Positions 6,050 through 11,705 of a stretch of DNA of 36,353 nt are shown here, piece by piece. Below the pieces are notes generated by a model. The model did no database searches, was not told where the DNA came from, and worked only from the letters and a program-made list of their open reading frames with translations. The stretch spans positions 1 to 36,353 of the forward strand of contig JAYZQJ010000272.1 in NCBI GenBank assembly GCA_036149055.1, given 5' to 3'. The position numbers were made by a program, and so were the translations under genes. This DNA is from Myxococcota bacterium. GTDB lineage: Bacteria; Myxococcota_A; Polyangia; Polyangiales; Sandaracinaceae. Positions within the stretch are counted from its first letter, which is position 1, and every line of letters begins with the position of its first letter.

Positions 6050-6385
6050 CTACATGGGCTCGGGCGTCGGCTCCTCGCCGAAGGTGCCGGACGTCGGCTG
6101 CCAGCGCGCTGGAGCCTCCGGCTGCAGCCGGAAGAGCGCGTCGACGCAGAGCACGGCGCCGTGAGGCCCCACCACCGCGCCGAGCCCGGCCTCCCCCGCG
6201 GTGCCCCAGACGACCCCGGCGGGCAGCTGCTCGCCGCATGGATCGGCGACCCGCCATTGCCATTCCGGTACGAGCTGAGCCGGGCGCTGCTCGAGCGCGG
6301 CGGAGCTCCCCTCCACGGCTTCGTGACCGGCGCACCCCGTCAACGCGAAGTAGGCCATCACGGCCAGAAGGATCGTTCGCTTCAT
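6050..6385 (-). CDS. Small (111 aa) hypothetical lipoprotein with C-terminal tail GEEPTPEPM
   Basis: MKRTILLAVMAYFALTG/C is a classic signal II peptide. ATG 6385 overlaps the upstream stop (ATGA, 6385-6382). The ORF-track start at 6730 lies inside the upstream gene. Confidence 0.85.
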   Translation of the reverse strand: MKRTILLAVMAYFALTGCAGHEAVEGSSAALEQRPAQLVPEWQWRVADPCGEQLPAGVVWGTAGEAGLGAVVGPHGAVLCVDALFRLQPEAPARWQPTSGTFGEEPTPEPM

Positions 6386-9300
6386 GATTCCCTGCCGTTC
6401 TTCTTGAGCCCGTATTCGGACGCGAGCTGGGACAGCCGCGGTCGCTTCATCCCGAGCAGAGCCGCCGCCCGCGAGATGTTGCCGTTCGTCTCCTGGAGCG
6501 CGCGCTCCACCGCGGCGCGCTCGAGGTCCTTTCGGATCTCGTAGATCGAGCCGCGCCTCTGTAGCGCGTCGTAGTACAGGTCCGAGAGGTCTCCGGTCTT
6601 CGGCCCCGGCGGTCGCCCCACGAGCACCGGCGCGTGCCGCTCGAGCTCTCGCCTCCCGAGGACGCTCGACTGCGCGAGCACCGTGACCGCGCGCAGCACG
6701 TTCTGCAGCTCGCGCACGTTGCCGGGCCAATCGTGCTGTTCCAGCAGCTCGGTGGCCTCGGGCGCGAGCACCACCGAGTCGCCGTGCTCGCGCCTGAGGA
6801 GAGCGCGGGCGATCTCGGGGACGTCGCCGGGCCGGTGGCGGAGGGGCGGGAGGTGAAGGTGCAGAGCGCGGAGGCGGTAGTAGAGATCCGCGCGGAAGCG
6901 CCCCTCCTCGACCATGGACTCGAGATCGCGATTCGTCGCCGCGACGACGCGGACGTCGACCGTGATCGTCTCGGTGCCGCCGACTCGCTCGAAGGCGCGC
7001 TCCTGAAGCACGCGGAGGAGCGCGCTCTGCGTCGACGGCGACATCTCTCCGACCTCGTCGAGGAAGAGCGTGCCGCCATCGGCCAGCTCGAAGCGCCCGC
7101 GCTTTCGTCTCGTCGCGCCGGTGAACGCACCTTGCTCGTGGCCGAACAGCTCGGAGAGGAGCAGCGTGTCGACGATGGCGCCGCAGTTGACGCTCACGAA
7201 GGGCTGACCTCGACGCCTCGACAGATCGTGGAGGGCCGATGCGACCAGCTCCTTTCCCGTGCCGCTCTCACCCGTCAGCAACACGGTGGTCGCGCTCGGC
7301 CCGACGCGCTGCACCCAGGCCCGGACGTCTTCGATCGCGCGAGAAGAGCCGATGAGCCGCTCGAGGTGACGAGGCTCGGCTTTCGGCGCCTCCTCTTCCG
7401 GCGTCGCCGTCGTTCGCTCCATTAGGCGCTGCACGTCGAGCACGGGCTCCAGCGTACGGAACCCCTCGCGCAGGTCCGGCGGCGTAGCGAGCTCGAGCCG
7501 GCGGATCAGCGTCTGCGCCTCGGTCACGCGCTTCTCGGCCTCCAGCCTGGCGCCGGATGCGAGCAGGCAGCTGGTCAGTCGAACGAGGGCCCGCAGCTCC
7601 AGCAGCGGATCGCCTCCGTCACGTGCCAGTCGGAGGGCGTGCCGCGCGCGCCGAATCGCTTGCTCGGTGTCGGGCTCCAGGCACGACCGCAGGAGCGCGA
7701 GGCGCGAGGCGTTCCGGGAACCGTCGGGTTCGAGGCCGTTCAGCATCGCGGTCGCCCCAGGCGTGTCCCCCTTCGCGATGCGATATCGAGCGAGCCGAAG
7801 CGTCACCAGGACCTCGGTCCGGCGGTATCCCGCGGCTCGAGCGAGGGCGAGCACCTCCTCGGAGAGCCGCTGCGCGGTGGCGATGTCACCGATCTGCTCC
7901 GCCACGTCCGCTTCGATGGCGAGGCGGTCCGCCCGACGCTCGGGACGATCGCCGTCAGCGCGCCAGCTCGCGGTGAGGGCGAGGATCTCCTGCGCGCGAC
8001 GGGTGCACCCGAGCGTCGCATGAGCCTCGGCCAAGTTCGTGGTCACACGGACGAGCAGACCTTGGTCCTCGTAGGCCTTGAGCACGCGTGCCGCGGCGCG
8101 GTAGGAGGCGATCGCCTCTGCAAATCGACCTTCGAGTCGATCGACGACGCCGATGTTCTCGAGGGCGATGGCCCGGTGCAGGGCCGCGCCCTGTCCGGCC
8201 GCCAGCTGGACGACTCGATGCAGCAGCCCTCGGGCGTCGTCGAGGCGGCCCTGGGACATGCGGATGAGCGCCATGTTGTTCAGCGACCGCATCCGGAACC
8301 GGACGTCGCCCCGGCCTTCCGCCACCGCTTCGTTCTCCGCGAACGACGCCTCCGCTGCCTCGAGGTCGCCAGCCGACCAGGCGGCGCGACCGATCGTGTT
8401 GCGGGACTCCAGCGCGGACTCGCCGGACGGATCCAGCGCCATGGACGCCAGCGCGCGCTCCCGGGCGAGTCGATATTCGGCGCGCTCCAGGTGCACCAAG
8501 GCGAGCTCGGAGAGCGCACGCGCCCGGGAGGCCGTGTCCGATGACTCGACCGCGTGGGCCAATGTCTCCTCCGCCCGCTCGAGGCGGCCGGCGCTCCGCG
8601 CGAGGCGTCCCACGCGCGTCAACGCTGCGGCGTCGTCCGGCGCGGCGTCGAGGAGGCCTTCGGCGATCTCGAGCGCCTGCGTCAGGTCGCCGCGGGTGGC
8701 GTGCAGATCCACCAGGGACTCGAGGAGCTCGGCGGGAGGGGCCGCGGTCTCGCCGGCGGCCGCCTCGAGCACCGCGGCGGCCCCGTCGAGATCGTGGCGG
8801 TGGGCGAGGTCGCTGGCGGTCGAGACGGCGGCCTCTGCGGGCACTTCGGCTGGTGCCGCCTCGGCGACTCGCCGCAAGGTCCGGACCACGCCGCTGGCCC
8901 GGGACTGCGCGCCCATCACGATCTCGTCGACGCGATCGAGGAGCCCGCCCGTCCGACCGAGGAGCGCCCGGATGACGTCGGGCTGAGCCAAGTAGGCGCG
9001 CATCTCCTCGTAGTCCATCGGCGCGACCGTCAGCCGCGTGCTGCACGGATGCTCGAGCAGCCGGTCGACGAAGACGCCGCGCCGATCCGCCGGCGGCAAC
9101 GGGGCGATCCACAGGCTGCCGCCATGGCCTCCCAGGCGTCCGTCGTCCAGCACGTACTCCAGGAGCGCGGTCGTCTGCGCGTCGAGCCGCTCGAGCCCAT
9201 GAAGCCAGATCGTCGCTGGCTCCCGCGCGCCCAACTCCGCCAGCAACTCGACCGTGCCCTCGAAGAATCCGGCGCGCCTCGCCGCCAGATCCGTCCATGC

Positions 9301-9777: not shown

Positions 9778-11705
9778 GCGAACCAGCTCATGTCGATCAG
9801 GGTCTGCGGGTCACCCAGGGCGCGGGCGCTGAGGAGGTTGACCTCGACGTCGTCGGCGCCGAAGCGCTCGAGGCTGCGCGCGAGGAAGCCGATCAGGCCG
9901 ACGGCCAGGGTGAGGGAGGGCTCGTCGCGCTCCACCAGCTCGAGGCGCCCGTAGCCGCGCCCGACCCGGCGCACCTCCACGTCCACGCCGCGCACGACCT
10001 TCTTCAGGATCGCGGGCATCTCCGCCACCAGCAGCTCGGGCGGCGGGGCCGGCGGGCGCAGCGCGCGCATCTCGTCGAAGGCGCCCTCGGCGGCCGCGCG
10101 CCCCGCCTCGAGCACGAGGTGCAGGTCGTCGTCGCCCAGCCGGCTGTCGATGGTCTCCACCAGGATGCGGACCGCGAAGAGGTCCACCCAGCTGTCGGCG
10201 TCGATGCCCTGCACGAAGGGGAGCCGCGCCTGCTCCGGCATCGCGTCGAGCACGTCCTTCAGCGATCGCTCGCCGAACTTGCGGGCCACGAAGCGCAGGA
10301 CCGCGAGCACCACCGCGCCCGCGTAGTAGCCGCCCTGCGGCATCTTCTCGGTGGTCTTCGCCTGGGCGAAGGCGCGGCGCTCCCCCGGCGAGGGCGCGCG
10401 CACCCGACCGTGCTCCTGGGTCGAGGTCTCCTCCGAGACGTGGATCGGATCTTCGACCTCGACCGGGATCTCGTCGATCTCCGGCTCGGGCGCGACCGCG
10501 GTCTCCCCCGAGCGCCGGGCCGCCTCGGCGTCGAGCTGACGGATCATCGCGAGCGCCTCCTCGGCGCTCATCCGCTGGGTCATGTCGGCGTCGCTCGACG
10601 GCTCGCTCTTCGGCTTGGCGACCGGGCGGGGCGGCAGCGCGCGCGGCGGGAGCGTCGAGGGCTTGGGGATCGGCCCGGTGCTCGAGCGGTGGCGCGTCTC
10701 GCGCGCCTTGATCCGCATCATCTCCATCGTGAAGGAGTCGCTCGGCTGATCGTCGCGGAAGGGCACGCGGAGCCCGCCGAAGGGGAAGAGCGCCTCGGCG
10801 AAGGCCTCCGAGTTCGCCCAGCGCTCCTCGCGATCCTTGGCGAGGGCGCGCATCACGATCTGCTCCAGGGCGGGGCTCAGGTCCGAGCGGCGCTGGCGCA
10901 GCGGCGGCGGCGGCTCCTTGCGCACCTTGCGCGCCAGCTCCCGGAAGGTCGGCGCGTCGAACGGGCGGCGCCCGGCGAGCATCTCGTAGAGCACCACGCC
11001 CACCGAGTAGACGTCGAGCCGCGGGTCGCGCCGGTCGTCGCCGCGGAGCCGCTCGGGCGCGGCGTAGGCCGGGGTGCCGACCAGGGTGCGCTCCGGGGTC
11101 AGCGACTTCGCGTCCTTCTTGCCCTGGAAGAGCGCCGCGAAGCCGAAGTCGCAGACCTTCACGAAGTTCCGGTCGCCGAAGCGGACCACGAGCATGAGGT
11201 TCGCGGGCTTGAGGTCGCGGTGGAGGATGCCCCGGTCGTGGGCGCCCTGGAGGCCGGCGAGGGTGTGGATGGCGATCGTGGCGGCGCGCTTCACCGGCAG
11301 CGGGCCGTCCATCGCGATCACCTGCGAGAGGCTCCGGCCGCGCAGGTACTCCATGACCATGTACGGCCGCGCGCCCTCGGTGCCGAAGTCGAGGATGTCG
11401 ATGATGTTCGGGTGGCCGATCGCGGCCGCGGCGCGGGCCTCGCGCTGGAAGCGCTCCACCGACGACGGGTTCTCGGCCACCGCCGGGTGGAGCAGCTTGA
11501 TGGCCACGAACCGCCGCAGGACCTGGTCCGCCGCCTTGTAGACCGCGCCCATGCCACCGTCGCCGAGGAGCCGCACCAGGTGGTAGCGGTTGGCGATCAG
11601 CCGCCCGACCATCTCCGGATCGCCCGCGATCGGCCGGCCCGTGGCGGTGCATCGCAGGGTCCCCTTGGGATGACGGGCGCCGCAGTGCGGACATTTGCGG
11701 ACCAC
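9774..11705 (-). CDS. Cytoplasmic Hanks-type Ser/Thr protein kinase with N-terminal Cys/His knuckle and C-terminal DUF2378/TIGR02265-like domain
   Basis: [35 protein letters not shown]-terminal CPHCGARH...C. C-terminal [16 protein letters not shown]...DSWVDL...AGRAAA resembles the myxobacterial DUF2378 family. No TM segment. Confidence 0.92.

Follow-up and report, generated by a model that had tools for sequence, protein, structure and literature searches.

What does a sigma54-dependent activator respond to when its input is a long array of tetratricopeptide repeats (TPRs), and when a gene for an exported protein lies directly behind it? The question is raised by three minus-strand genes on contig JAYZQJ010000272.1 of a Myxococcota bacterium from the Sandaracinaceae (assembly GCA_036149055.1). 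The window analysed is this one entire contig of 36,353 nt; the host genome (G000) spans 9.9 Mb and is 96% complete. The genes encode a Ser/Thr kinase (643 aa), an activator (1131 aa from its first GTG) and a lipoprotein (111 aa), which the original prediction joined into a three-gene peptide-sensing cassette. All three open reading frames (ORFs) are real, as are the two 4-nt overlaps between them, GTGA at 9777-9774 and ATGA at 6385-6382. The unit, however, is two genes, the activator and the lipoprotein, not three. The answer developed here, which we hold to be somewhat more probable than its negation, is a two-gene peptide-sensing switch: a proline-containing heptad of the lipoprotein would be the ligand of the cytoplasmic TPR-sigma54 activator.

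A conserved pair of genes

The proposal that a small signal-peptide gene consistently follows the activator was borne out. A single partner-gene test was given to 238 activator loci, selected by the activator alone: the 30 listed loci of family genomes, the best 80 of 374 GTDB loci, 48 places in the phylum, and the best 80 of 273 metagenome matches. Among these, 212 are non-redundant and retain the helix-turn-helix (HTH), and 205 have sufficient DNA downstream. A lipobox ORF lies behind the activator in 200 of the 205, with the proline motif x-P-x-P-x-P-x in 197; some variants entered the motif rule only once the relatives' lipoproteins had been read, and among the picks L231, at the least, appears to be spurious. 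Under a stricter, earlier rule applied to a first set of 94 loci, the counts are 86 for the lipobox ORF and 84 for the motif. The overlap between the two genes is likewise general (gap of -4 in 141 of 200 loci, far above chance), and this half of the proposed cassette stands.

As a control within the host genome, some lipobox-like ORF lies behind 11 of 64 assessable sigma54 activators and six of these contain PxPxP: three are all the members of the present family, and the other three look like shadow ORFs. The strict motif occurs in 6 of 879 small ATG-started lipobox ORFs, four of them beside family activators. Relatives of the activator are present in 24 of 31 family genomes (family-genome counts, here and for the kinase, omit G029), in 47 of 301 sampled genomes of the phylum, and at 374 GTDB loci with the HTH signature. 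Motif classes track clades of the AAA+ tree. The literature searched, outside which lie most subscription journals and all supplements, holds no description of the pair. The receptor-propeptide pair is real and conserved, and apparently undescribed.

The activator

The original prediction of a catalytically intact bacterial enhancer-binding protein (bEBP) holds. The middle gene matches TPR (TPR_12, E 1e-16), Sigma54_activat (E 3e-71) and HTH_8, and carries GESGTGKE at 836, GAFTGA at 883, LFLDEV at 904, FRADLYYRL at 961 and WPGNVREL at 1017; Walker A, the GAFTGA loop, Walker B, the arginine finger region, sensor II and the HTH are thus all present. The genome encodes rpoN on C249. The structural model (predicted local distance difference test, pLDDT, 89; predicted template-modelling score 0.70) is disordered over residues 1-36, then shows an alpha/beta domain at about 50-290, some 12 helical hairpins at 314-790, the AAA+ domain and the HTH. 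It contains no transmembrane stretch, the hydropathy maximum of 1.53 lying inside the AAA+ domain. No NCBIfam family reaches its cut-off for this protein, and a Foldseek search with the whole activator returned AAA+ domains only. In one relative (L014, genome G007) the activator frame extends some 500 nt beyond the lipoprotein start, through a lost stop or an assembly error.

The input had been described as a TPR array. The TPRs are there, but a STAND-type domain that precedes them had been missed. The alpha/beta domain followed by a repeat sensor is the AAA_16-type arrangement in the model, and the paralogue on C181 matches AAA_16 with E 7e-22; a PDB sequence search with part of that paralogue's N-terminal region gave no match. 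Atlas neighbours are AAA_16+TPR proteins at 0.86-0.90, which is a lead only. The label "NTPase" does not survive for this N-terminal region: where 44 of 69 near-full-length relatives have a canonical P-loop, GxxxxGK[ST], this copy reads DGPEGVGIP and has lost the lysine. Its STAND domain is probably a scaffold that does not bind ATP.

The TPR region resembles known peptide receptors. An Asn ladder is kept in 64-67 of 69 rows, and the closest solved TPRs, by sequence and by fold, are peptide binders that include LGN, Pins and kinesin light chain. Fold matches extend to NprR-NprX (Z 24.1; root-mean-square deviation, rmsd, 6.0; 333 residues aligned), Rap (Z 23.4; 4.7; 325) and AimR (Z 22.0; 4.9; 334).

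The lipoprotein and its heptad

The lipoprotein begins with MKR, a hydrophobic stretch and LTG-C18, the arrangement of a bacterial lipoprotein, and lipidation is predicted. Across 150 rows C18 and C80 are invariant, and C50, D82, P106, P108 and P110 are present in at least 90%. Asp occupies position +2 in just 2 of 200 partner lipoproteins. In Escherichia coli the Lol +2 rule makes Asp at this position bear on inner versus outer membrane destination, and its rarity here points to the outer membrane.

The window protein has no Pfam or NCBIfam match; neither does any of seven relatives match NCBIfam, and among 29 family members no Pfam match falls below E 0.016. A fold search with the core gave a best Z of 2.3, which is no match and no proof of a new fold, and ESM Atlas returned nothing usable for it. 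The family forms 251 clusters at 50% identity. By core-profile count, the 200 partner lipoproteins fall into three scaffolds: core (68; median 178 aa), short (113; median 119 aa) and large (19; at least 255 aa). Short and large types do not match the core profile; all three share only the lipobox and x-P-x-P-x-P-x.

This proline heptad, at the C-terminus of the window protein, had also been overlooked. It is present in at least two copies in 105 of 150 profile hits and in up to seven, and large-type lipoproteins carry it as tandem 7-residue units. EPTPEPM is also the ending of a metagenome relative (L210), and the lipoprotein of the sister genome G018 has five copies of EPNPQPM. The three family activators of the host genome are paired with EPTPEPM, with DPSPQPS, and with DPSPQPS plus DPTPTP[IV], respectively.

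Some lipoproteins depart from the one-gene, one-motif pattern. A paralogous activator is immediately preceded by a second lipoprotein (G000:C23 at about 26750-27130, L035; G018, L034:8755-9189); on C23 it has DPTPTP[LI] motifs, so that one receptor would have two precursors. One clade (L054, L068, L073, L078 and kin) has two fixed unlike motifs, GIPTPEP/GIPTPQP and GPTPQIPIP/VPQPPIP, of which L078 retains the second only. In lipoproteins of about 300 aa (L167, L171, L175, L176, L187), GKA[DE]- or KAD-like words flank the heptad array and are possible processing sites.

Proposed recognition of the heptad by the TPR groove

Covariation of the TPR groove with the lipoprotein tail, as originally proposed, is found. 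Corrected mutual information was computed on 127 activator-lipoprotein pairs (effective number 82). It links heptad position 7 with activator columns 534, 500, 497 and 537; position 5 with 577, 574 and 540; and position 3 with 654, 584, 580 and 614, an antiparallel register of heptad and groove. Co-change along branches gave the same columns (best r 0.45, position 7 with 534). Here the tree came from the AAA+ and HTH part alone, with 126 rows (L084 was dropped for a frameshift and two motif picks were hand-corrected); trees were quick and FastTree trees. Pairings of position 5 with 540/574/577 and of position 3 with 577/580/584/617/654 also emerge. At position 7, Asn accompanies Asp534 in 18 of 18 cases, Ser accompanies Glu in 12 of 18, and Trp accompanies Ala or Gly in 40 of 44.

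The first set of groove columns was chosen after the mutual-information result had been seen, and the count was therefore repeated with the published ligand-contacting TPR positions 2, 5, 9, 12, 13, 33 and 34 (PMC1261162), with the Asn set as TPR position 6 and the register assumed for the two repeats that lack it. The ten leading columns then include 2, 7, 4 and 4 groove columns for heptad positions 1, 3, 5 and 7. By comparison, 154 AAA+ baits reach four groove columns three times and never more, and five lipoprotein positions outside the motif yield 0-2. Mean excess is 0.049, 0.053 and 0.033; in the null, the 95th percentile is 0.024 and the largest value 0.038. These alignments support a TPR groove that reads heptad positions 3, 5 and 7.

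The predicted complex adds less. Activator residues 310-795 with the last 32 lipoprotein residues score 0.50, and the best control 0.02; runs share at least 81% of contacts, with partner pLDDT of at least 47. Of 157 solved pairs, 116 reach the mark, as do 2 of 215 mismatched ones. At or below 0.60, though, it is reached by only 18 solved pairs and by both of those mismatches, and TPR-peptide complexes have already been solved, so this prediction passes with weak support.

Candidate promoters and the activator start

The candidate sigma54 promoter before the activator (TGG-N8-TTGCA, with GG-N10-GC) ends 13 nt before GTG 9663, and its predicted transcript would start at about 9665, nearly leaderless onto that codon. 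In the sister genome G018 the site is kept, its spacer differs, and ATG takes the place of GTG 9663. This suggests a later activator start at 9663 (1093 aa), and self-activation. The first 16 codons from GTG 9777 are also similar in G018, and a start at 9777 is possible. Such sites number 165 on both strands of the 9.9-Mb genome. Across the family, nine TTGCW sites fall within the 500 nt that precede the STAND start (76-81 loci); the adjoining 2.5 kb contain three (82 loci), and the opposite strand has none.

A box of the CGTCA-N5-TGCACG type is present within 600 nt upstream in 10 loci, and once in the adjoining 3 kb of coding DNA on the same strand; the pattern was spotted by eye and derived from 5 of its 10 loci. 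Palindrome and k-mer counts over 22 promoter flanks revealed no clear common site. An FHA-sigma54 activator precedes 15 loci and could be the protein that binds the upstream box there.

Members of the PxPxPW clade (e.g. L272, L259, L243, L109) have instead a canonical -24/-12 site in the linker between lid and HTH, facing the lipoprotein about 300 nt before its start. At a score of at least 16, such linker sites occur in 19 of 190 loci, against 0 of 190 on the reverse strand and 7 of 1142 other windows. This internal promoter is absent from the window copy, where a look-alike near 6638 has 11-nt spacing. Both arrangements are consistent with sigma54 control of the lipoprotein, and with feedback.

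Proposed mechanism and alternatives

Taken together, these features suggest a model in which the lipoprotein is exported, anchored by the lipid that its lipobox predicts, and delivered to the outer membrane under the +2 rule. The heptad would be cut free and carried back across the inner membrane; the genome has an Opp/Dpp-type operon, on C263. In the cytoplasm, EPTPEPM would lie extended and antiparallel in the TPR groove, where the Asn ladder would grip its backbone and variable groove residues would read positions 3, 5 and 7, as the co-variation indicates. By analogy with AfsR and with the induction model of MalT, binding would most likely release the AAA+ domain from a brake imposed by the STAND-TPR part. 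AfsR is inhibited by its NOD and TPR parts (PMC10936776). Activation is the likelier outcome of binding, and inhibition a lesser yet substantial possibility. Sigma54 transcription would follow, that of its own operon included if the predicted promoter is used, with positive feedback. Different heptads would be different dialects, three pairs with differing heptads being present in the one host genome; the kinase would have no dedicated role. The sequences show the architecture, the linkage, the motif and the co-variation; we infer that the lipoprotein is lipidated and exported, that its peptide is released, imported and bound directly, that inhibition is thereby relieved and that the operon activates itself.

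A wider form of the model is possible, but falls short of an even chance. Here x-P-x-P-x-P-x sequences on outer-membrane lipoproteins would be lipid-anchored pro-pheromones, passed between cells by contact, vesicles or release, then imported and read by an NLR-like STAND-TPR-sigma54 receptor. Dialects would be orthogonal within and between genomes, with a readable code of groove column 534 against heptad position 7. As to outer-membrane exchange, the host genome yields no TraB above cut-off (45 partial matches), and a Cys-repeat protein on C74 was not identified as TraA.

Several observations weigh against the two-gene switch. Five loci lack a partner gene. The last heptad is terminal in only 16 closed loci and in 16 of 136 profile hits, so that most lipoproteins would need two cuts in proline-rich sequence; no common cut site was found, and the neighbourhoods of 87 wide activator loci contain no recurrent peptidase or transporter. 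A promoter site precedes only 11 of 76 loci, under a looser rule. Within the co-variation itself, heptad position 1 gives no groove signal, His534 of this copy accompanies Met, Ser, Ala and Val in other rows, and Trp accompanies Ile or Thr at 534 in three distant rows. A test on independent pairs, too small with three of each kind, gives 3 of 3 for Asn/Ser with Asp534 (p 0.25), about 2 of 3 for Trp with Ala/Gly534, and 1 of 3 for Trp with Arg502. Finally, 30 of 75 assessable loci have, behind the lipoprotein, a membrane histidine kinase with seven transmembrane helices (7TM) and a GAF domain; the host genome has one such case (C229).

These points lend themselves to other readings. If the heptad of an un-exported precursor bound the groove in the same cell whenever Sec export lagged, the activator would monitor export, and no cleavage, import or cell-to-cell signal would be needed. 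Such a device accounts for the linkage, the co-variation and the tight translational coupling; it avoids the two-membrane problem, and it suits heptads that are often internal and loci with no linked peptidase or importer. It leaves unexplained the diversity of heptads between lineages and paralogues, the presence of up to seven copies, and the second upstream motif lipoprotein on C23, and we regard it as rather unlikely. The histidine kinase invites a scheme of lower probability still, in which the lipoprotein acts on this kinase outside the cytoplasm and the activator merely transcribes the lipoprotein gene; the lipoprotein QseG reportedly acts on the kinase QseE in this way. On 40 rows, every motif position does have single kinase columns among its ten strongest, and at position 3 such columns rank first. 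But the kinase is missing from 45 of the 75 loci, the host genome has one kinase gene for three heptads, mean co-change over the same 40 rows at positions 3 and 5 is 0.067 and 0.068 for the groove and -0.016 and -0.027 for the kinase, and groove column 534 leads for position 7.

No more probable than the histidine-kinase scheme is a reading in which the activator is an ordinary one and the lipoprotein a co-transcribed surface protein; the motif would then be a linker or modification site, and the co-variation would reflect shared descent. Motif classes do follow the clades of the AAA+ tree, independent pairs are few, Asn ladders are common in long TPRs, and the complex passes weakly. Shared descent should, however, affect AAA+ columns, outer helices and other lipoprotein positions equally, which it does not, and the heptad motif survives three changes of scaffold. 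A three-gene circuit on the AfsK-AfsR model, with the activator phosphorylated by the kinase encoded upstream, is very improbable. The AfsK-AfsR precedent (PMC10936776) and the co-stranded genes with GTGA overlap in G000 and G018 speak for it; yet the activator follows the kinase in just 2 of the 19 kinase loci, a MshEN-HEAT gene directly faces the kinase in G006 and G007, a separate candidate promoter lies between the two genes, and third-position GC is 0.975 for the kinase against 0.868 and 0.884 for the pair.

The kinase and the insertion site

The kinase was rejected as a partner because of its distribution: the activator is absent behind it in most loci, and relatives have empty sites. 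Orthologues of its C-terminal domain (E <1e-40) occur in 25 of 31 family genomes, and the two loci with an activator are those of G000 and G018; one further locus has no DNA behind it. At the empty site, the distance between the kinase stop and the convergent MshEN-HEAT gene is about 20 nt (G006, G007) or about 540 nt (G016). Any Ser/Thr kinase is found in only 5 of 87 wide activator loci, one of them this orthologue. The kinase is a family-wide gene behind which, as gene order across the relatives indicates, the activator-lipoprotein pair landed in one genus. The GC contrast is only mild support for this, since 13% of long genome ORFs are equally low. Nor does the overlap of kinase and activator mark coupling. 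GTGA arises from an Ala-stop ending, for the kinases of L306 and L316 end in the same TTCGCGTGA and have no activator; residues 1-36 of the activator are modelled as disordered, and the -24/-12 site lies inside its supposed N-terminus.

The kinase has an N-terminal CxxC..C stretch (11640-11705) and a conserved 186-aa C-terminal domain (9777-10334) with a faint DUF2378 match (E 0.085). Its likelier partner is the divergent membrane protein of 846 aa at 11845-14385 (plus strand), which adjoins the kinase in relatives (L300, L302, L304); this protein has a GAF-like stretch, HTH_8 and a degenerate sigma54 AAA+ domain, with Walker A lacking GK and GEASGS in place of GAFTGA. The other border of the insertion site, at 3038-6037 (plus strand), is a 999-aa protein of MshEN (c-di-GMP motif, below cut-off) and HEAT repeats. 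Elsewhere in the window are a DUF1592/DUF1588 and DUF1552 gene pair (14444-17774, plus strand) and a 1252-aa multiheme cytochrome with TPRs (28611-32369, minus strand). In other genomes a larger locus recurs (L046:4960-13416, L050, L044, L041), made up of an FHA-sigma54 activator, the STAND-TPR activator, the lipoprotein and the 7TM-GAF histidine kinase.

RNA contigs from four runs in two studies cover the locus and its flanking genes equally, and some span the activator-lipoprotein junction; they were not used as evidence, because contigs give neither level nor strand and DNA may be present.

Coordinates of the activator-lipoprotein pair, its regulatory sites and the adjoining kinase in the window
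Feature	Position	Strand	Remarks
Lipoprotein pro-peptide gene	6050..6385	-	111 aa; signal of type II (lipobox LTG-C18), then a linker, a small core with a disulphide and the heptad at the C-terminus
Heptad E-P-T-P-E-P-M at extreme C-terminus, candidate ligand	6053..6073	-	Motif census and co-variation
Lipoprotein core, residues 39-87, C50/C80, three beta strands	6125..6271	-	pLDDT 87-98 for residues 31-90
STAND-TPR-sigma54 activator	6382..9777	-	1131 aa from GTG 9777; 1093 aa from GTG 9663
Degenerate STAND (AAA_16-like) domain, residues ~50-290	8908..9630	-	AAA_16 E 1e-4, below cut-off
About 12 TPR-type helical hairpins, candidate peptide groove	7408..8838	-	Asn ladder N460, N501, N541, N581
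Sigma54 AAA+ domain and lid	6634..7356	-	Every motif intact
Fis-type HTH, family signature LGMKRPRLSQL	6415..6588	-	Domain match and signature
Candidate sigma54 promoter	9676..9692	-	GG 9690-9689, GC 9678-9677, TGG-N8-TTGCA
Candidate upstream activator site, CGTCA-N5-TGCACG kind	9734..9748	-	~45-60 nt before -24 element
Hanks-type Ser/Thr kinase, judged outside the system	9774..11705	-	Pkinase E 5e-52; neighbour at insertion site

Relation to known systems

The likeness to RRNPP systems, central to the original prediction, is one of analogy and not of membership. In Rap-Phr, NprR-NprX, PlcR-PapR and AimR-AimP, as here, the gene of a cytoplasmic TPR regulator is followed directly by that of its exported partner, the peptide is short, often repeated and lineage-specific, and the TPR fold matches NprR, Rap, AimR and PlcR. 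No RRNPP protein appears at the sequence level among the best 60 of 79 PDB matches. PMC10075063 lists five traits: a propeptide of 10-100 aa, secretion by Sec with signal peptidase I, a receptor of 250-500 aa, peptide-binding TPRs, and adjacent genes. Two of the five, the receptor TPRs and the adjacency, are found here. The other three are not: the propeptide is 111 aa, the receptor 1093-1131 aa, and the invariant lipobox Cys points to signal peptidase II (SignalP was not run). Moreover, the host is diderm, receptors of about 1100-1350 aa carry STAND in front and a sigma54 AAA+/HTH module behind, and the precursor is a lipoprotein of 100-340 aa whose peptide is x-P-x-P-x-P-x.

The receptor half is closer to MalT-class regulators and AfsR, in which a STAND domain is followed by a TPR-type sensor; the AfsR TPR is matched by sequence (E 7e-9) and MalT domain III by fold (Z 21.1, rmsd 4.2, 332 aligned). 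The output differs, being a sigma54 AAA+ module with HTH_8 instead of LuxR or SARP, and the inducer is likely the peptide of the next gene; the P-loop is lost in this copy, and there is no dedicated kinase as in AfsK-AfsR-AfsS. The output itself is that of the bEBPs NtrC, NifA and FleQ, a complete AAA+ domain with Fis HTH (FleQ: Z 31.4, rmsd 1.4, 247 aligned), but with STAND plus TPR as input.

For the lipoprotein, partial precedents exist. Myxococcus SitA lipoproteins are released from the outer membrane, and their C-terminal part then reaches the cytoplasm and acts there (PMC8546572), although the present proteins have neither a toxin domain nor the escort domain of about 375 aa. PEP-CTERM systems (PrsK, PrsR) share a Pro-Glu-Pro-like motif and, in the frequent neighbour, a 7TM-GAF kinase of PrsK-like layout (below cut-off); here, however, the protein ends at the motif, with no transmembrane helix or basic tail after it.

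Implications

Signalling peptides that are read by cytoplasmic TPR receptors are described for Firmicutes and their mobile elements (PMC10075063). If the two-gene switch is true, it would extend such signalling to a social diderm phylum, in 47 of 301 sampled genomes. It would also add a new type of precursor, a peptide-gated STAND sensor and a new switch for sigma54 activators. The ligand would be a defined seven-residue peptide, and co-variation names the residues that may underlie its specificity and its dialects.

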